DNA from: an uncultured Dehalococcoidaceae bacterium
Lineage (GTDB): Bacteria > Chloroflexota > Dehalococcoidia > Dehalococcoidales > RBG-16-60-22
Reading direction: 5' to 3'
Assembly (NCBI GenBank): GCA_964462865.1
Contig: CAYWZO010000001.1
Coordinates: 17,309-81,308 of the forward strand
Length of the DNA stretch: 64,000 nt
A model generated the notes under the pieces. It saw nothing but the letters and a program-made list of their open reading frames with translations, had not been told where the DNA came from and did no database searches. Shown piece after piece: positions 7,064-24,154 of the stretch. Within the stretch, counting starts at the first letter, position 1, and each line of letters begins with the position of its first letter. The translations under genes were made by a program, and so were the position numbers.

Positions 7064-7474
7064 ATGATAAAGCGGGTCCACCATATCGGCATCGCGGTCA
7101 ACAGCCTCAAGGAAAGCGCCGCCCTTTTTGAAAAAGTGCTGGGGGTCAAGGCGCATTACCACGACGCCCCCTGCCAGAAGGTGAGCGAGGCAGTCTTTAA
7201 AATCGGTGAAGGCGCGGAAATCGACCTCGTCGAGCCGACCGGCCCTGAAAGTACCGTGGCCAGGTTCCTGGAAAAGCGGGGGGAGGGGCTGCACCACCTC
7301 GCTTTAGAGGTCGATAATGTAGATAACGAACTTAAAGTGCTGGAGAGTAAAGGCGTCCAGCTTATCGATAAAGAGGGGAGAGAGGGGGTGGCGGGGCAAA
7401 TCGGTTTCCTCCACCCTAAATCGCTGGCCGGAGTACTGATTGAGCTCGTCCAGCCGGAAAAGGAAGGGAAATAA
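7064..7474 (+). CDS. mce: Methylmalonyl-CoA epimerase (VOC/glyoxalase fold)
   Basis: 136 aa; MIKRVHHIGIAVNSLKES...FLEKRGEGLHHLALEVDNVD...GFLHPKSLAGVLIELVQ. It sits between the two mutase subunit genes. Confidence 0.85.
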   Translation: MIKRVHHIGIAVNSLKESAALFEKVLGVKAHYHDAPCQKVSEAVFKIGEGAEIDLVEPTGPESTVARFLEKRGEGLHHLALEVDNVDNELKVLESKGVQLIDKEGREGVAGQIGFLHPKSLAGVLIELVQPEKEGK

Positions 7475-7480
7475 CAGGAA

Positions 7481-7891
7481 ATGAGCCAGAAAAAGATACG
7501 CGTACTTATCGCCAAGCCGGGACTGGACGGGCATGACCGCGGCGCTAAAGTGGTCGCCCGCGCCCTGCGGGACGCCGGCATGGAGGTCATCTATACCGGC
7601 ATCCGCCAGACACCGGAGATGATTGTCCAGGCGGCCCTGCAGGAGGACGTGGACGTCATCGGGTTGAGCTGTCTTTCCGGCGCTCACCTGGAGCTCTTCG
7701 GGGACGTGATGGCGGGGCTGGGGGAGAAGGGGCTGAAAGATATCAGCGTGGTGGCGGGGGGCATCATACCGGAGGACGATATCCCCGCGTTGGAGCAAAT
7801 AGGCATTAAAGCCGTCTTTGGGCCGGGGACGCCCACTACCGAAATTGTTGCCTCGATTGAAAAGCTTGTTGCCGGTGGAAAACAGGATTAA
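7481..7891 (+). CDS. Acyl-CoA mutase small subunit (cobalamin-binding domain)
   Basis: [34 protein letters not shown] contains the DxHxxG B12-binding motif. 136 aa. Confidence 0.88.
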
Positions 7892-7911
7892 GATACATCG
7901 CGGAGAGAAAA

Positions 7912-8343
7912 ATGACCGACCGTGAATTATCGACAGAAGAACTGGAAGAAGGCTCCGAACTTCACCTTGACTTCGATAAGGTATCGAAAGTAGCGGCAGA
8001 GGTCGCCGGTGTCATGCCCGCCGCCGTCCAGAACGTGGATACCAAAGAGGTCATTCTGGTTGCCTACGTGAATAAGGCAGCCTTCCAGAAAAGTATCGAG
8101 ACCGGCATCGCTACCTTCTGGAGTACTTCGCGTAACGAACTCTGGGTAAAGGGCGCTACCTCGGGTAATGCCTTTGAACTGGTCGAGGTAAGGGTCAACG
8201 ACGAGCAGAACGCACTGGTATATATCGTCCGACCGAAAGGCGAAGGTATCTGTCACACCCGTAACTCAAAAGGTCAAGCCCGCAACTGTTTTTACCGCAG
8301 GTTAAATACTGATACCGGTACGCTGGAAAACCTCGACCCCTAG
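7912..8343 (+). CDS. HisI-like protein (PR-AMP cyclohydrolase fold), divergent
   Basis: ILVAYVNKAAFQKSIETGIATFWSTSRNELWVKGATSGNAFELVEVRVNDEQNALVYIVRPKGEGICHT...NCFYR aligns to the HisI core. The usual DCDxD box reads NDEQN and KGETSGH reads KGATSGN. Confidence 0.6.
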   Translation: MTDRELSTEELEEGSELHLDFDKVSKVAAEVAGVMPAAVQNVDTKEVILVAYVNKAAFQKSIETGIATFWSTSRNELWVKGATSGNAFELVEVRVNDEQNALVYIVRPKGEGICHTRNSKGQARNCFYRRLNTDTGTLENLDP

Positions 8344-8719
8344 TTCCACGCTTTCAGGCTACGGAAGAACCTGTCCGGATTTTTACCAGAGAGCTCTATT
8401 AGCCTTCGGAGGCGACTCAGGTCATATTCTCCCTTCAACAATCCTTGATATCATCGAATCAATGATTTTGTGGGGAGGACAAAATGGTTCTATGCTAAGT
8501 ACTTATCTCTCTCAAAATATTCATTATTTATCTTTTTTTTACTTTTTTTGAACATTCTTTATCATGCATATACTATTTTCATGCTATATTGAATTTGACC
8601 GTCAGAACGAGCAGCCACGCAGCCTGGAGGAAATAACTTAATGAGATTTTCCCTTATTAAGTTAAAGTACTCTTCAGTAAAAACGGTTAAAACTTAGGTT
8701 TGGCAGATTATTAGCTAAT

Positions 8720-10735
8720 ATGGGTGAACAGAAGAAAAAAAACGTATTTCCTGAAGAGAAATTTAGCAAAATATTTGACGAATACCGTGACAGGATAGAC
8801 CAGATTGTCCGGAAATCCTCAAATAATTTCGTTGAAAACGAAACGTTAACTGTTGTTACGACTGAGGATGTCCCTGCTGAACCAGGCACAGAGGTCCGGG
8901 GGGCCCAGGAGAATACCGAAAATCAGCCCGGGATGGATAAGCAACCATCCAGAATAAAACTGCCTGATACTAAAAAATCCGCTAAGAAAATCAGCGAGAC
9001 CGAACCTAAAGCTAAAAACATCATGTTAAAACAATCAATCAACTATACGGATATCACCAGGAGAATGAATAAAAAAAGATTGGGCGACCTCCTGATAGAA
9101 AACAAGATAATTACCCAAGCCCAGTTACAAAAAGCCCTTGAAGTGCAGAGCCAGGAAAGTGGCAGGTTAGGTGAAATCCTTATCAAGCAGGGGCTTATAA
9201 AATATGATACCCTGCTGGAATTTCTTAGTAAGCAACTGGAAATACCCATAGTAAATTTACAGGGCCGCATCATCAAGCAAGAAGTGCTGGAACGGGTCCC
9301 GGAGCACATAGCCCGAGGGCGTAACATTATTCCCGTGGAAATCGTTGATGATAAATTGGCCATCGTCATGGGATATCCCGAGGACATCATCACCATCGAT
9401 GATATTCAACTGATAACGGGTATGAAAATATGTATCGCGCTGGGTAACCCGGCCGATATAGAAGCCGCCATCGATTTCAACTACGAATCAAGCCGAAAAC
9501 TAGATATGGAAATAAACGAGGCCGAGGGTACAGCGAAGGATGAAGAAGAGGAAATTCAGGACAATATCGATTTTTCGCCAGCGGCCCAGAACCTCAATAA
9601 AATAATCAATCAGGCCGTACACGATGGCGCCTCGGACATACATATAGAACCTTATAAAAAGCGGCTACGTATACGCTTACGAATCGACGGCGTATTGCAG
9701 GATAAATATTCGCTGCCGGTCTCCGCTAATGATGTCATCGTAAGCAGAATAAAAATACTTGGAAAAATGAATATCGCGGAACACAGGCGCCCGCAGGACG
9801 GTCAATTCACAATTAAGTCAGGTCATAAATATATTGATATCCGGACCGCCACCGTAGGTACGGCCAACGGGGAAAGGGCCACCCTGCGTATTCTGGATAA
9901 GTCCCTGACCCTGATTAACCTGGATAAGCTCGGCTTCTTACCCGATACCCTGGAACAGTTAAAAAATATGCTGAAAAACACCTTCGGCATGGTCCTCGTG
10001 GGCGGCCCGACCGGGTCCGGTAAGACCACCACTTTATATTCCATGATAAACAATCTGGACCGCCACGAACTCAATATCATGACCATTGAGGACCCGATTG
10101 AGTACAGTTTTACAGATATCACTCAAATGCAGGTCAATGAGAAAGCGGGTATCAATTTTTCAAGCTGTTTGAAGGCATCGTTACGCCATGACCCCGATGT
10201 CCTCCTGATAGGTGAGATACGTGACCCGGATACGGCTAAAATAGCCGTTCAGGCGGCGCTGACCGGCCACCTGGTACTTGCCTCCATCCATGCCAATGAT
10301 GTTTCCAGCATGCTTTTCCGGTTGGTTCATCTCGGCATAGAGCCATATCTAATTTCTTCAACACTTATCGGCCTGCTGGCGCAACGCCTGGTCCGCTGTG
10401 TTTGTTCCTATTGTGCTGAAGAGACGGCCCCGTCGGCGGAGGAGGTCAAAGCCTTCAAGGAACTCACGGGAGAGACACTGACCGCCGTGCATACCGGCAA
10501 AGGCTGCGGTATTTGCTCCAACACCGGCCATCACGGTCGGACGGGGATATTCGAGCTGATGGCCATGAATGACACTATCAGAAGCAAACTGATTGCCGGC
10601 GCCAGCGCCTCGGAAATCCGGCACGAGGCGATCAATCAGGGTATGGTAACGATAAGCCAGTCAGGCATGACCAAAGTCAAGCTGGGTCTATCTTCGACCA
10701 AAGACGTACTGCGTTCGATAAACGCGCTGGGATAA
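8720..10735 (+). CDS. GspE/PilB/MshE-family secretion/pilus ATPase with N-terminal MshEN domain; start codon uncertain
   Basis: Walker A GGPTGSGKTTT, Asp/His boxes (LLIGEIRD, LVLASIHAN), C-terminal Cys cluster (CSYC...GCGICSNTG), and two tandem RLGxx(L/I)(L/I)xxG(L/I)(L/I)xxxxLxxxLxxQ-type motifs. The first ~115 aa are Lys-rich and low-complexity. Alternative starts are M102 and M116 (nt 9065). Confidence 0.85.
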   Translation: MGEQKKKNVFPEEKFSKIFDEYRDRIDQIVRKSSNNFVENETLTVVTTEDVPAEPGTEVRGAQENTENQPGMDKQPSRIKLPDTKKSAKKISETEPKAKNIMLKQSINYTDITRRMNKKRLGDLLIENKIITQAQLQKALEVQSQESGRLGEILIKQGLIKYDTLLEFLSKQLEIPIVNLQGRIIKQEVLERVPEHIARGRNIIPVEIVDDKLAIVMGYPEDIITIDDIQLITGMKICIALGNPADIEAAIDFNYESSRKLDMEINEAEGTAKDEEEEIQDNIDFSPAAQNLNKIINQAVHDGASDIHIEPYKKRLRIRLRIDGVLQDKYSLPVSANDVIVSRIKILGKMNIAEHRRPQDGQFTIKSGHKYIDIRTATVGTANGERATLRILDKSLTLINLDKLGFLPDTLEQLKNMLKNTFGMVLVGGPTGSGKTTTLYSMINNLDRHELNIMTIEDPIEYSFTDITQMQVNEKAGINFSSCLKASLRHDPDVLLIGEIRDPDTAKIAVQAALTGHLVLASIHANDVSSMLFRLVHLGIEPYLISSTLIGLLAQRLVRCVCSYCAEETAPSAEEVKAFKELTGETLTAVHTGKGCGICSNTGHHGRTGIFELMAMNDTIRSKLIAGASASEIRHEAINQGMVTISQSGMTKVKLGLSSTKDVLRSINALG

Positions 10736-20970: not shown

Positions 20971-22728
20971 TTGACCAAGTGGCGTGATACCCGCCGACTT
21001 CGCGTCGGGATGGCGCAGATCAACGTCACAGTGGGAGATTTTGCCGGCAACCAGCGGAAAATACTGAAAGCGATTGAAGAGGCCAGGGCTGCGGGCGTGG
21101 ACCTCCTCACCTTCCCGGAGCTGGCCGTTTGCGGCTACCCGCCCGAAGACCTCCTCTTCAAGCCGCAGTTCATCGCGGAAAACCTGAATCTGCTGGATAA
21201 AGTAATCGAGGCCTCGCCGGGCATCACGCTGGTCATCGGCTTCGTGGACGCCGACGGCGATATTTATAACGCCGCCGCGATTATCCATGACGGCCGCCTC
21301 ATCGATACCTACCACAAGACCTACCTGCCGAACTATGGCGTCTTCGATGAGAACCGCTATTTCCGGGCCGGCAGCCGCTACCCGGTGTACGTCATCGGCG
21401 GCATAAATGTGGGCGTTAATATCTGCGAGGACATCTGGTACGAGTCAGGGCCTTCTACCGTTCAAACATACTCCGGGGCCGACGTCATCATCACCATCAG
21501 CGCTTCGCCTTACCACTTCGGCAAGACACATACCCGGGAAAGAATGATTGCCACCCGCGCTACCGATAACGTGGCCATCTTCGCCTTCAACAACCTGGTG
21601 GGAGGGCAGGACGAGCTGGTCTTCGACGGCAACAGCCTGATACTGGACGAGAGGGGGCAGCTCATCGCCCGGGGCCGGCAGTTCCAGGAAGACCTGATAA
21701 TCGCCGACCTCGACGTCGAAAACGTTTTCCGCACCCGCCTGCACGACCCCCGCTGGCGCCAGGGACAGCTCAAGCGCGAGGAGGAGGGACTGCCGGAGAC
21801 GGAGACCATCGTTATTACCGAAGCACCATCGGGCGCGGCCAAACCGACTCTGCCGGCCCGAAAGACAGAGGTATCGGACGTCACCGCCGAGATATACCAG
21901 GCCCTGGTGCTGGGCACGCAGGACTATGTCCTGAAAAACGGCTTTAAAAAGGTGCTCATCGGCCTTTCTGGCGGCGTGGACTCCAGCCTGGTAGCCGTGA
22001 TAGCCGTCGACGCGCTGGGGAAGTCGAACGTGGTCGGCGTAGCCATGCCGTCGCGGTACTCCTCGCCCGGCAGCCTGACCGATGCCGAAATCTTGAGTAA
22101 AAACCTGGGCATCAAGCTTTACAACATCCCCATCGAACAGGTATTCCAGGGTTACCTGGATACCCTGGCCGAGGCCTTTAAGGGGATGGAGCCGGGCATC
22201 GCCGAAGAAAACCTCCAGGCGCGCATCCGGGGCAATTTGTTAATGGCGCTTTCCAACAAGTTCGGCTGGCTGGTGCTGACCACCGGCAATAAAAGCGAGT
22301 ATGCCACAGGCTATACCACGCTGTACGGGGACATGGCGGGGGGCTTCGCCGTCATCAAGGACGTGCCCAAGACCATGGTCTACAAGCTGGCGGCGCACCG
22401 TAACGCCCTGGCCGGCAATGACCTGATACCGGATACCGTATTCAAAAAACCGCCTTCCGCCGAACTGCGGCCCGACCAGAAGGACACCGATTCGCTGCCC
22501 ACCTATGAGGTGCTCGACCCCATACTGACCGCCTATGTTGAAGAAGATAAAAGCATCGAGCAGATTGTAGCCACCGGCATCGATGAGAAAATCGTCCGGC
22601 GGGCGGCGCGGCTGGTGGACACCAGCGAATACAAACGGCGGCAGGCGCCGCCCGGTGTGAAGATAACGCCGCGGGCCTTCGGCAGAGATAGAAGGCTGCC
22701 CATCACCAACCGGTTCAAGAGAGATTAA
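20971..22728 (+). CDS. nadE: Glutamine-dependent NAD+ synthetase (nitrilase/CN-hydrolase domain + NadE domain)
   Basis: The N-terminal CN-hydrolase has FPELAVCGYPPEDL and VNICEDIW. The C-terminal part has the P-loop GLSGGVDSS and NKSEYATGYTTLYGDMAGGFAVIKD. The listed start is TTG; an alternative lies a few codons downstream. Confidence 0.9.
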   Translation: MTKWRDTRRLRVGMAQINVTVGDFAGNQRKILKAIEEARAAGVDLLTFPELAVCGYPPEDLLFKPQFIAENLNLLDKVIEASPGITLVIGFVDADGDIYNAAAIIHDGRLIDTYHKTYLPNYGVFDENRYFRAGSRYPVYVIGGINVGVNICEDIWYESGPSTVQTYSGADVIITISASPYHFGKTHTRERMIATRATDNVAIFAFNNLVGGQDELVFDGNSLILDERGQLIARGRQFQEDLIIADLDVENVFRTRLHDPRWRQGQLKREEEGLPETETIVITEAPSGAAKPTLPARKTEVSDVTAEIYQALVLGTQDYVLKNGFKKVLIGLSGGVDSSLVAVIAVDALGKSNVVGVAMPSRYSSPGSLTDAEILSKNLGIKLYNIPIEQVFQGYLDTLAEAFKGMEPGIAEENLQARIRGNLLMALSNKFGWLVLTTGNKSEYATGYTTLYGDMAGGFAVIKDVPKTMVYKLAAHRNALAGNDLIPDTVFKKPPSAELRPDQKDTDSLPTYEVLDPILTAYVEEDKSIEQIVATGIDEKIVRRAARLVDTSEYKRRQAPPGVKITPRAFGRDRRLPITNRFKRD

Positions 22729-22763: not shown

Positions 22764-23822
22764 TTAAGCCTGATATTTACCCAGGGCGTCATAGAAGGCC
22801 CGCCAGAACGGGTCGACGATGGGGTGCTCCAGCTTCCTCTCCTGCCCTTCCTCCACCAGCACCATGCCCTTCTCCGGCGCGGTCAGCTCGCCGACCACGG
22901 AAGATTTGATGCCCTTCCCGGCCAGGGCCCGTACCACGGCGTCGGCTTTGGGCGCCTTGCAGGAAATAATCAACGTTCCTTCGCTGATGGAGGCATAAGG
23001 TTCGATATCAAAGAACCGGCACACCTCGGCGATACACTCTTCCATGATAATTTTTTCCTTTTCAACCCGGACGCCCAGTCCGGCGGCCTGCGCCAGCTCG
23101 TAAAGGCCGCCCCACACGCCGCACTCGGTGGCATCGTGCATGGCGGTCACGCCGCTATCGCGGACGCCCACGCTCACGGCGGTGAGGGCATCCTCCACGA
23201 CGGACATCTTGTAAAATATCCCCTGCGCTTTATCGCTGAACTCCGTCCCGAACTCCTTCTCGATAATTTTAGGGAACATGGCCGCAAAGATACCCGTGGC
23301 CTCGATGGCCGGGCCCTTGGTGATGATTATCTTGTCACCAGCCCGGCAGAATTTAGGAGTAACGTATTCATCCAGCCCGCCGATGCCGACGATAGTGGCC
23401 CCGCCGACCATGGGATAGTGGCAGTTCTCGTAGCGGGCGGTATGGCCGGTAATTACCGTTATGCCCAGTTTTTCACACTCCCGGTGCATGACCTCCCAGA
23501 CCGTTTCCAGCTGCTTCTTGGTCATCTCCATCGGCAGGTTGAGGTCGATGGCGAGGAACTTCGGCTTGAGCCCGCTGGTGACGGAATCGGAGGCGATGAT
23601 GTGGATGGCGAACCAGGCCGCCCGCTCCCAGCCGTACTCCGGCACGATGAAGACGGGGTCGCAGGTAAACGAGGCCGCCTGTCCCCCTATTTCCGCGATG
23701 CCGACATCCACGCCGTGCTGCGGCCCCACCAGGACTTTATCGCTCCTGGCGCCCAGGCGGGGGAAGATAAGCTCTTTGAAGATTTCCGGGGAAATTTTAC
23801 CGATTTCCGGCATGTCGTTCAT
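22764..23822 (-). CDS. PurM/ThiL/HypE-superfamily ATP-dependent enzyme ('AIR synthase-related protein'), TPP-riboswitch controlled
   Basis: GPQHGVDVGIAEIGGQAASFTCDP..., ITGHTARY and AMHDATECGVWGGLYELA match the PurM-like N/C domain pattern. An AAGGAG SD lies 8 nt before ATG 23822. Confidence 0.65.
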   Translation of the reverse strand: MNDMPEIGKISPEIFKELIFPRLGARSDKVLVGPQHGVDVGIAEIGGQAASFTCDPVFIVPEYGWERAAWFAIHIIASDSVTSGLKPKFLAIDLNLPMEMTKKQLETVWEVMHRECEKLGITVITGHTARYENCHYPMVGGATIVGIGGLDEYVTPKFCRAGDKIIITKGPAIEATGIFAAMFPKIIEKEFGTEFSDKAQGIFYKMSVVEDALTAVSVGVRDSGVTAMHDATECGVWGGLYELAQAAGLGVRVEKEKIIMEECIAEVCRFFDIEPYASISEGTLIISCKAPKADAVVRALAGKGIKSSVVGELTAPEKGMVLVEEGQERKLEHPIVDPFWRAFYDALGKYQA

Positions 23823-23853
23823 GGGTATGGCTCCTTAAACATGTATTTTAATC

Positions 23854-23988
23854 AATAAAAAACCAGAAGCTGAAAAGGGACGGCTTCCGGTCTTAACTTC
23901 ACTTCCCTACGCTCGCATTACCGAGTTCAGGTTCAAAGGGTGTGTCCCGATAAAATCGGGGCTCTCAGCCTTCCAGCTCCCCTAGTGG
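23854..23988 (-). promoter_or_regulatory. TPP (THI-box) riboswitch with terminator expression platform
   Basis: The minus strand reads CCACUAGGGGAGCUGGAAGGCUGAGAGCCCCGAUUUUAUCGGGACACACCCUUUGAACCUGAACUCGGUAAUGCGAGCGUAGGGAAGUG. It contains the CUGAGA, ACCUGA and GGUAAUGC..GCGUAGGGAA consensus blocks. It is followed by the hairpin ACCGGAAGC...GCUUCUGGU plus UUUUUUAUU (23854-23891). Confidence 0.88.
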
Positions 23989-24154
23989 CAATATTCAGTT
24001 TGACTATATTCTAGCCCATCGGCAGCCCGGGTTTCAAGTTACCCGTACCCGCGGCCGTTTTCAACACCTTTGACCGCCGGCTAGCCTGCGGCTTATAATT
24101 CACCTCGGAGTGAGGTAAGTCTTTGACGCCAAAACATCGCCGGGGGTCCGACAC

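Follow-up and report, generated by a model that had tools for sequence, protein, structure and literature searches.

Which step of thiamine metabolism would be carried out by a protein of the PurM/HypE superfamily whose gene lies behind a TPP riboswitch? The question is raised by one locus in the window, a stretch of 64,000 nucleotides from the genome of an uncultured Dehalococcoidaceae bacterium. An earlier note, made from the letters of the window, had described a TPP riboswitch there, followed by a terminator, a Shine-Dalgarno sequence and an ATG, and a single regulated gene that was not a classical thiamine gene. We recovered all of these features, and we refer to the protein as P0001. The parts of the locus, in the order of transcription, are:

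24008..24037, minus strand: sigma-70-like promoter (TTGAAA, 18-nt spacer, TAGAAT), matching 10/12 positions in a consensus scan; a pattern match only
23887..23993, minus strand: TPP riboswitch aptamer (THI element, RF00059), 63.9 bits by cmscan against a gathering score of 54.3
23857..23894, minus strand: expression platform, a terminator hairpin and U-run from RNA folding, which overlaps the 3' end of the aptamer match
23831..23836, minus strand: Shine-Dalgarno sequence AAGGAG, read from the sequence, 8 nt before the ATG at 23822
22764..23822, minus strand: coding sequence of P0001, 352 amino acids, with the Pfam domains AIRS and AIRS_C

The riboswitch is genuine. The covariance match spans the full model (positions 1-105; E 3.5e-11), and the aptamer was recovered again when we searched the whole genome for TPP riboswitches. 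Only two were found in this genome, and the second one sits upstream of thiC. The locus is where the earlier note had placed it, but the end that it gave (23988) lies 5 nt inside the Rfam boundary. The promoter-like site is 15 nt upstream of the aptamer. The terminator has a fold energy of -19.3 kcal/mol (z -2.0). Its stem, with a 9-bp core (ACCGGAAGC/GCUUCUGGU) that grows to 12 pairs in the MFE structure, is followed by six U. A simple terminator scan overlooked this hairpin because its loop is 12 nt long and the scan is limited to loops of 3-8 nt.

A full-length aptamer above the gathering score, with a terminator that overlaps its 3' end, is what is expected of a TPP riboswitch, and the OFF-switch layout is typical of Gram-positive-style control; only the regulated gene is out of the ordinary. 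When TPP is plentiful, the aptamer is predicted to bind it, so that the terminator hairpin would form and transcription would stop before the P0001 gene; when TPP is scarce, the gene would be transcribed. The neighbours of the P0001 gene are nadE and a thiolase gene. Because the next gene is nadE, which is convergent and ends at 22728, the transcription unit is monocistronic.

P0001 has the fold of the PurM superfamily, yet it matches none of the superfamily's named members. Pfam finds the domains PF00586 (AIRS, 41.9 bits) and PF02769 (AIRS_C, 70.8 bits). A Foldseek search with the AlphaFold model (pLDDT 96.3) gave 112 matches in the PDB at E ≤ 0.001, and all 50 of those listed are members of the PurM superfamily; the nearest folds are HypE and ThiL, at no more than 22% identity. 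Against NCBIfam, P0001 reached no equivalog cut-off, and no PurM model (TIGR00878) is among its matches. On a tree, P0001 falls in a separate clade of 103 sequences that is sister to HypE. (Relatives at about 30% identity, our "clade C," were rejected as members of the family because they group with HypE on the tree.) Near the N-terminus, P0001 has a near-invariant glycine and an invariant lysine (G8-K9) and no cysteine.

HypE is the carbamoyl dehydratase of [NiFe]-hydrogenase maturation. That P0001 would be nearer to HypE than to ThiL was borne out by profiles (87 versus 55 bits), by Foldseek and by the tree. HypE is the best profile match (TIGR02124, 86.8 bits, although the cut-off of 251.6 is far higher) and also the best structural match (PDB 3WJP, 2Z1E and 2I6R; TM 0.76-0.81). 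Both proteins have the PurM fold with its two domains and can be presumed to share the ATP site, and P0001 has a motif, MHDATE(G/C)G, that we take to resemble the D-x-T-R-G-G motif of HypE. However, the substrate-bearing C-terminal cysteine tail of HypE is missing from P0001, and unlike HypE, P0001 has no hyp neighbours and is under thiamine control. Of the other named members, SelD (TIGR00476) gives P0001 just 43.5 bits against a cut-off of 125, and P0001 lacks the cysteine of SelD's N-terminal Cys/Sec glycine-rich loop. True members of both families, as well as ThiL, are encoded elsewhere in the same genome (HypE at 455 bits).

To our knowledge, ThiL, the ATP-dependent thiamine-monophosphate kinase, is the sole thiamine enzyme of the PurM superfamily. 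It shares the fold of P0001 (PDB 3C9T; TM 0.67-0.80), and this fold, the riboswitch control and a gene order with the family downstream of ThiE or ThiN would all suit a second, TPP-regulated thiamine-monophosphate kinase. But P0001 scores 55 bits with the ThiL model (TIGR01379), far from the cut-off of 184.15, and lies outside the ThiL branch of the tree, while the true ThiL of this genome (298 bits) is on another contig. As the earlier note had suspected, P0001 is not the canonical ThiL. A ThiL isozyme would also be redundant, as canonical ThiL accompanies the family in nearly every genome that we examined: in this one and in 30-35 of 35 family-bearing genomes from other phyla (above the cut-off in 30). 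Furthermore, riboswitch control sets the family apart from thiL, as do its fusions to, or adjacency with, ThiE, ThiN and ThiD. We consider a ThiL isozyme very improbable.

The link to thiamine extends far beyond this locus. Our survey of the order covered 151 Dehalococcoidales genomes; from other phyla, we used 80 loci for neighbours, which were called by tblastn against reference proteins, and 35 family-bearing genomes for pathway genes. (The loci were retrieved with an alignment of a 34-sequence subset.) The family comprises 338 clusters at 50% identity (E ≤ 1e-30) from at least 12 bacterial and archaeal phyla, and across much of Dehalococcoidales its members are 66-82% identical. In at least 19 Dehalococcoidales genomes, which fall in two clades that are about 40% identical, TPP riboswitches above the Rfam cut-off lie directly upstream of family genes. 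The same arrangement was found in 5 of 5 Bacteroidota loci, in one Bipolaricaulota locus and in two Actinomycetota loci. The wider survey that the earlier note had proposed thus found the linkage in Dehalococcoidales and in three other phyla, or four bacterial phyla in all.

Gene neighbourhoods and fusions point the same way. Across many phyla, ThiE or ThiN adjoins the family gene in 52 of the 80 loci (41 and 11, respectively). Fusions of the family to ThiN occur in both orders, fusions to ThiD (X-ThiD, where X is the family gene) are 47-51% identical to P0001, and in haloarchaea the family gene lies beside ThiDN. The operons that we observed include RS-X-ThiN, RS-X-ThiE and RS-Thi4-ThiN-X, where RS is the riboswitch. 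(Long open frames had suggested ThiE-X fusions in Actinomycetota as well, but Pfam found no in-frame ThiE, and ThiE is a separate upstream gene.) The link of the family to thiamine is robust, as it is supported by three independent kinds of evidence: the riboswitches in four phyla; the fusions to ThiN or ThiD; and operons with ThiE, ThiN, Thi4 or transporters for thiamine or its precursors. This evidence ties the family to thiamine-phosphate synthase and not specifically to the pyrimidine branch.

The canonical pathways of thiamine synthesis are regarded as having no missing steps (PMC11223231), and salvage is poorly known. Because the family was detected in only 71 of the 151 genomes of the order, we view it as accessory. 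It probably stands for a step of B1 metabolism, accessory or in salvage, that has so far gone unnoticed. P0001 would then belong to a large thiamine-dedicated branch of the PurM/HypE/ThiL superfamily and would act as an ATP-using, salvage-type accessory enzyme alongside ThiE or ThiN.

The earlier note had thought it conceivable that thiamine pyrimidine synthesis or salvage includes a dedicated AIR-forming step, AIR being the substrate of ThiC, or some other ATP-dependent step. At first sight this genome is compatible with a dedicated AIR synthase: there is no PurM above the cut-off in this 90%-complete assembly, and thiC is its only other riboswitch-controlled gene. But canonical PurM is above the cut-off in 132 of the 151 Dehalococcoidales genomes, including all 7 other genomes of the same taxonomic family and every closed genome that carries the P0001 family, which speaks against a replacement of PurM. 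Because the relatives keep a canonical PurM, we read its absence here as an assembly gap. Furthermore, the search for PurM in this genome misses the P0001 gene, and 27 of the 35 family-bearing genomes from other phyla lack ThiC. The AIR-forming step did not hold up, and an AIR synthase is barely credible.

Another apparent gap in the order is ThiD, which is above the cut-off in just 1 of the 151 genomes. We found that the long ThiE of this genome has an N-terminal ThiD2 domain (PF17792), and that all 11 Dehalococcoidales genomes tested (this one and 10 others) carry a ThiD2-ThiE fusion, whether or not they have the family. ThiD2 is a known HMP-P kinase that cannot use free HMP (PMC12345177). 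The fusions close the apparent gap, and this genome has a complete de novo route (ThiC, ThiD2-ThiE, Thi4 and ThiL). Since the route is already complete, P0001 adds capacity and does not fill a gap. A replacement of ThiD is ruled out by five good genomes in which ThiC, ThiE and ThiL are present while ThiD and the family are both missing, and also by the ThiD2 domain on ThiE and by the X-ThiD fusions. With this, two inviting but wrong answers are set aside: AIR synthase and a ThiD substitute.

A broader kinase of the pyrimidine side is a separate matter. If P0001 phosphorylated HMP and/or HMP-P, it would restore HMP salvage in organisms that rely on ThiD2, with its inability to use free HMP, and would supply HMP-PP where both ThiD and ThiD2 are absent. 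The X-ThiN fusions and operons do mirror archaeal ThiD-ThiN (ThiD is PF08543; the analogy is functional only), and the family is frequent in genomes without ThiD: among the 35 genomes from other phyla, 14 combine the family with ThiE in the absence of ThiD, and the 5 of these that were tested lack ThiD2 as well. One such operon contains a ThiY-type pyrimidine importer. Also, ThiL itself phosphorylates a phosphate monoester. However, the HMP-P step is already covered by ThiD2-ThiE here and throughout the order (in all 11 genomes tested, 5 good family-less ones included), and the family is itself fused to ThiD or, in haloarchaea, placed beside ThiDN. ThiD is present in 19-21 of the 35 family-bearing genomes from other phyla and in 9 of 9 family-carrying Actinomycetota. 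On balance, we consider a pyrimidine-side kinase unlikely.

The reading that we favour, with a probability of about 0.3, is that P0001 supplies thiazole phosphate, at the expense of ATP, from a salvaged thiazole alcohol (HET or carboxy-HET). This is a guess, in which the consumption of ATP, the part in salvage and the thiazole as substrate are all inferred. Such a role would resemble that of ThiM (hydroxyethylthiazole kinase; PF02110), and there are genomes with a slot for it: 7 of 9 Actinomycetota genomes have ThiD, ThiE and ThiL and lack ThiG, Thi4 and ThiM, as do one Thermoplasmatota genome and one Marsarchaeota genome. An operon with X-ThiD, ThiE and CytX is likewise without any supplier of thiazole phosphate. 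ThiM never lies beside the family gene in about 120 loci, and at its curated cut-off it is found in none of the 35 family-bearing genomes from other phyla (two matches are near the cut-off). Within Dehalococcoidales, there is no clear anticorrelation between ThiM and the family; ThiM is too rare there to be informative (5 of 151 genomes, 2 of which also carry divergent family members).

The likeness to ThiM is only a functional analogy. Both occupy the same niche, namely TPP-riboswitch salvage operons with thiD and thiE, and both combine an accessory distribution with fusion to the synthase; yeast THI6 is a ThiM-type fusion of this kind. The folds are unrelated, as ThiM is ribokinase-like and P0001 is PurM-like. 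We know of no PurM-superfamily enzyme that phosphorylates an alcohol, which counts against a thiazole kinase; the known acceptors in the superfamily are an amide or carbonyl oxygen, selenide and phosphate. It also counts against a supply of thiazole phosphate that this genome makes its own thiazole with Thi4 and that our search of it turned up no transporter for a precursor. Moreover, the analogy fails to account for the lineages without ThiD. In 14 family-bearing genomes (from Bacteroidota, Bathyarchaeia and others), both ThiC and ThiD are missing, and the 5 tested also lack ThiD2; if the family were only a thiazole kinase, ThiE would receive no HMP-PP there. The family gene is accompanied in these lineages by a methyltransferase, a pyrimidine-type ABC binding protein or ThiT. 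These neighbours hint at other substrates, and the family may have more than one function.

Could P0001 instead help with de novo synthesis of the thiazole, for instance by ATP-dependent activation or delivery of sulfur to Thi4? Thi4 is in the same riboswitch operon as the family gene in three Dehalococcoidales genomes, the window has a cysteine desulfurase cluster some 3-5 kb away from the P0001 gene, and SelD, from the same superfamily, activates a chalcogenide. Nevertheless, NifS is adjacent to the family in 0 of the 80 loci from other phyla, 23 of the 35 family-bearing genomes lack both Thi4 and ThiG, and there are Dehalococcoidales with Thi4 and without the family. We consider this improbable.

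Another candidate role is that of a thiamine kinase, which would convert imported or recycled thiamine to TMP for ThiL to convert to TPP. ThiT-X pairs occur in 5 loci. Two of the genomes with such pairs were surveyed, and apart from ThiL or a weak ThiL-like match, none of the thiamine biosynthesis genes tested is present in them. In nearly all genomes the family occurs together with ThiL, a search for thiamine pyrophosphokinase came up empty in 4 of 5 genomes (this one included), and the role would not duplicate that of any canonical gene seen next to the family. However, a thiamine kinase would leave it unexplained that the prevailing partners of the family, by adjacency and by fusion, are ThiE and ThiN, which yield that same product. 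In some Bacteroidota a PnuT-linked kinase-like gene is already present, and we found no transporter for thiamine, or for its precursors, in this genome. As with the thiazole alcohol, the acceptor would be an alcohol, which is without precedent in the superfamily. A thiamine kinase seems quite unlikely.

Closer to the chemistry of the superfamily is an ATP-dependent conversion or repair. PurL, PurM and HypE activate an amide or lactam oxygen, and P0001 could do the same to a damaged or alternative precursor (deaminated HMP, oxythiamine phosphate and formylaminopyrimidine are candidates) and so restore it for ThiD, ThiE or ThiN. This would be in line with HypE as the closest relative, would suit both the patchy, accessory distribution and the operons with ThiY-like and CytX-like importers of pyrimidine precursors, and clashes with none of the co-occurrences with ThiD, ThiE, ThiN, ThiL or ThiC, fusions included. 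Furthermore, the literature on ThiD2 stresses that toxic products of HMP damage enter through ThiD (PMC12345177). On the other hand, we saw no glutaminase or ammonia-donor partner, and the feeding of ThiE in genomes without both branches is left unexplained. Because no genome needs such a repair to complete its pathway, comparative genomics cannot indicate the substrate. We regard repair as possible, but tentatively so.

A bolder and somewhat doubtful proposal would account for the lineages that the thiazole reading leaves unexplained. The family might catalyse an ATP-dependent step that is absent from the thiamine map and that gives thiamine phosphate without ThiC, ThiD, ThiD2, ThiM, ThiG or Thi4. 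The operon would be riboswitch, methyltransferase, family enzyme and ThiE-type synthase, and the imported compound on which it would act would be neither HMP nor the thiazole alcohol. Bacteroidota, Bathyarchaeia, Bipolaricaulota and others would then possess a new route to B1, by salvage or by bypass, of which the gene in Dehalococcoidales would be a variant or a remnant that stands alone.

Assigning a reaction to the family would give the PurM superfamily a new chemistry or substrate class and would alter predictions of which organisms in sediments, aquifers, soils and dechlorinating consortia are auxotrophic for B1 or take part in its cross-feeding. Thousands of annotations would be corrected as well. 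We found no characterisation of the family in the literature within our reach, which excluded most papers in subscription journals, among them the early comparative genomics of thiamine regulons. In the databases, members of the family are labelled "HypE" or "AIR synthase."

The gene for P0001 lies behind a genuine TPP riboswitch, as the earlier note had proposed: in a covariance scan with the Rfam model RF00059, the full-length model matched at 63.9 bits (gathering score, 54.3).

Features of the riboswitch-controlled unit (window positions)
22764-23822, minus strand: open reading frame of P0001, 352 amino acids, Pfam domains AIRS and AIRS_C
23887-23993, minus strand: TPP riboswitch (RF00059)
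24037-24008, minus strand: promoter-like TTGAAA-18-TAGAAT, directly upstream of the riboswitch
24070-24099, plus strand: promoter-like site, 11 of 12 positions to consensus

The two promoter-like sites stand back to back in a spacer of 160 nt that separates the riboswitch gene from a divergent thiolase/DUF35/crotonase operon. On the 3' side of the aptamer, RNA folding gives a hairpin of 12 pairs (-19.3 kcal/mol) and then six U; the 9-bp stem described previously is the core of this hairpin. AAGGAG and the ATG (23822) both follow the terminator. The open reading frame ends just 35 nt from the stop codon of the convergent nadE, in keeping with the single-gene unit described before. Given this spacing and the hairpin with its U-run, the unit is monocistronic and a predicted OFF switch of the terminator type.

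P0001 reached none of the NCBIfam equivalog cut-offs: it scored 87 bits for HypE (cut-off 252), 55 for ThiL (184), and 44 for SelD (125). The source genome (1.96 Mb in 97 contigs, 90% complete, and Dehalococcoidales-like) encodes a true ThiL (298 bits), HypE (455), and SelD (352) elsewhere. The closest solved folds to a confident AlphaFold model (pLDDT 96.3) were HypE (TM about 0.8), ThiL, SelD, and PurM, with no more than 22% identity to any of them. In a maximum-likelihood tree, 103 family sequences formed one clade (SH-aLRT 97) that is sister to HypE and lies outside ThiL, SelD, and PurM. P0001 has neither the C-terminal cysteine that is the hallmark of HypE nor the N-terminal cysteine or selenocysteine that is the hallmark of SelD. 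Near the N-terminus, all family members share K9, and the G8 before it is nearly invariant. Thus, P0001 is not a canonical ThiL, and it is nearer to HypE than to ThiL, as the earlier note had suspected from the N-terminal region. A full-text literature search found no characterization of the family. A more distant paralogue from the PurM superfamily (clade C; L147, L148, and L149 from G076, G110, and G090) has about 350 amino acids and is about 30% identical to P0001; it groups with HypE in the tree, yet is distinct from it. Also, a metagenomic contig (L176:461-2608) carries an FAA-hydrolase gene and then two tandem family-like AIRS/AIRS_C genes (354 and 339 amino acids).

The link between this family and thiamine is robust. 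In the source genome, the only other TPP riboswitch is upstream of thiC. The family is present in 71 of 151 sampled genomes of the order and forms two clades there, with 56-82% (clade A) and about 40% (clade B) identity to P0001. A riboswitch lies at the 5' end of a family gene in at least 9 genomes with clade A and at least 10 with clade B. If RS is the riboswitch and X the family gene, operons include RS-X-ThiN, RS-X-ThiE, RS-Thi4-ThiN-X, and RS-Thi4-X; one alternative for the family is a Thi4 helper. Outside the order there were 338 family clusters (50% identity, E ≤ 1e-30). We fetched 80 loci, from Actinomycetota, Thermoplasmata, haloarchaea, Bathyarchaeia, Nitrososphaerales, Bacteroidota, Omnitrophota, and others; the family gene neighbors ThiE in 41 and ThiN in 11, whereas nifS adjoins it in none, so a general link to nifS was not confirmed. 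A riboswitch heads one Bipolaricaulota operon, and two Actinomycetota loci have RS-ThiE-X. Domain fusions include X-ThiN, ThiN-X, X-ThiN-isochorismatase, and X-ThiD. We conclude firmly, at the level of the family, that this is a widespread family of thiamine-pathway enzymes.

Two closed genomes, G043 (contig C1; L050, L166) and G084 (contig C1; L053, L168), each encode two thiamine-phosphate synthases: a ThiD2-ThiE fusion encoded a few kb away from thiC, and a ThiN or short ThiE that is paired with the family gene behind a separate TPP riboswitch. This arrangement points to two distinct modules for making TMP.

The earlier note had raised an AIR-forming step for the thiamine pyrimidine, which our data rule out. 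Although no PurM above the cut-off was found in the 90%-complete source assembly, a gap in the assembly is the likeliest reason: PurM is above the cut-off in 132 of the 151 genomes of the order, and it is matched in all 7 other genomes from the same taxonomic family and in the closed genomes that carry the P0001 family. Furthermore, among 35 genomes of other phyla that carry the family, 27 have no ThiC and thus no need of AIR from a dedicated enzyme.

HMP-P kinase first looked the likeliest activity, because across the order ThiD is above the cut-off in just 1 of 151 genomes whereas ThiC is in 123. However, five high-quality genomes have a riboswitch-controlled ThiC along with ThiE and ThiL but neither ThiD nor the family, and ThiE carries a ThiD2 domain (in the source genome, its N-terminal 168 residues):

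Contig C35:13928-15043 of the source genome (L007:1468-2586), minus strand: ThiD2-ThiE fusion, 372 amino acids (PF17792 at residues 29-151, 131 bits, then TMP-TENI)

Together with the X-ThiD fusions (family part 47-51% identical to P0001), this rules out the family as a ThiD substitute. All 11 Dehalococcoidales genomes tested had ThiD2, whether they carried the family or not, so the apparent ThiD gap is explained by ThiD2-ThiE. According to a paper that cites the original study, ThiD2 phosphorylates HMP-P and not HMP (PMC12345177). Dehalococcoidales should be incapable of salvaging free HMP via ThiD2. With the ThiD2 domain, the de novo route in the source genome is complete (ThiC, ThiD2-ThiE, Thi4, and ThiL), and the riboswitch-controlled P0001 gene is accessory. 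In two Dehalococcoidales without the family (L042 in G147:C1 and L043 in G123:C12), a second TPP riboswitch controls Thi4 and then a DUF362 protein, which may be an undescribed partner of the sulfide-dependent Thi4.

Thiamine genes in 35 family-bearing genomes from other phyla
ThiL: above cut-off in 30; the remainder near cut-off or fragmented
ThiD: above cut-off in all haloarchaea, all Actinomycetota, and two more archaea, with a single weak match in Aminicenantes; none in the 5 Bacteroidota, the Bathyarchaeia, or certain other genomes
ThiC: in only 8
ThiM: none above cut-off
ThiG: 3
Thi4: 9 haloarchaea only

The reaction that we favor, tentatively and at roughly a 30% chance, is that the family would supply thiazole phosphate in a ThiM-like role, because the family is complementary to genes for thiazole phosphate sources: nine genomes that have ThiD, ThiE, and ThiL lack a recognizable source, as does a compact operon of X-ThiD, ThiE, and a CytX-type importer, and ThiM adjoins the family gene at none of about 120 loci. 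On the other hand, no alcohol kinase is known in the PurM superfamily, and within the order ThiM and the family show no anticorrelation. Also, 14 of the 35 genomes have neither ThiC nor ThiD (ThiD2 was also absent from the 5 tested), and there the family gene has a methyltransferase, a ThiY-like binding protein, or ThiT as its neighbor, which argues against a ThiM-like role. Instead, the family might be a pyrimidine-side kinase, an amide-activating repair or conversion enzyme, or a thiamine kinase; the last is favored by the absence of thiamine pyrophosphokinase from 4 of 5 genomes tested.

Methyltransferase-X-ThiE-type operons occur at L116, L125, L127, L129, and L132 (about 7100-9990 in each) and at L092, L100, L107, L096, and L113. 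All 5 Bacteroidota loci share a TPP riboswitch followed by a class I methyltransferase, the family gene, a ThiE-like protein, and a Trm112-like protein; this operon is conserved in cultured Emticicia, Marivirga, Rufibacter, and Chryseobacterium. ThiC, ThiD, ThiM, ThiG, and Thi4 are missing from the Bacteroidota with this operon, as is ThiD2 from both that were checked. A kindred form in Bathyarchaeia and Bipolaricaulota has ECF-S or ABC/ThiY, then the methyltransferase, the family gene, and ThiE. In one lineage (L173/L174:4206-11074), the methyltransferase-X-ThiE trio is directly 5' of dihydrolipoamide dehydrogenase, lipoate ligase, and an E2 component of a 2-oxoacid dehydrogenase, a complex that depends on TPP.
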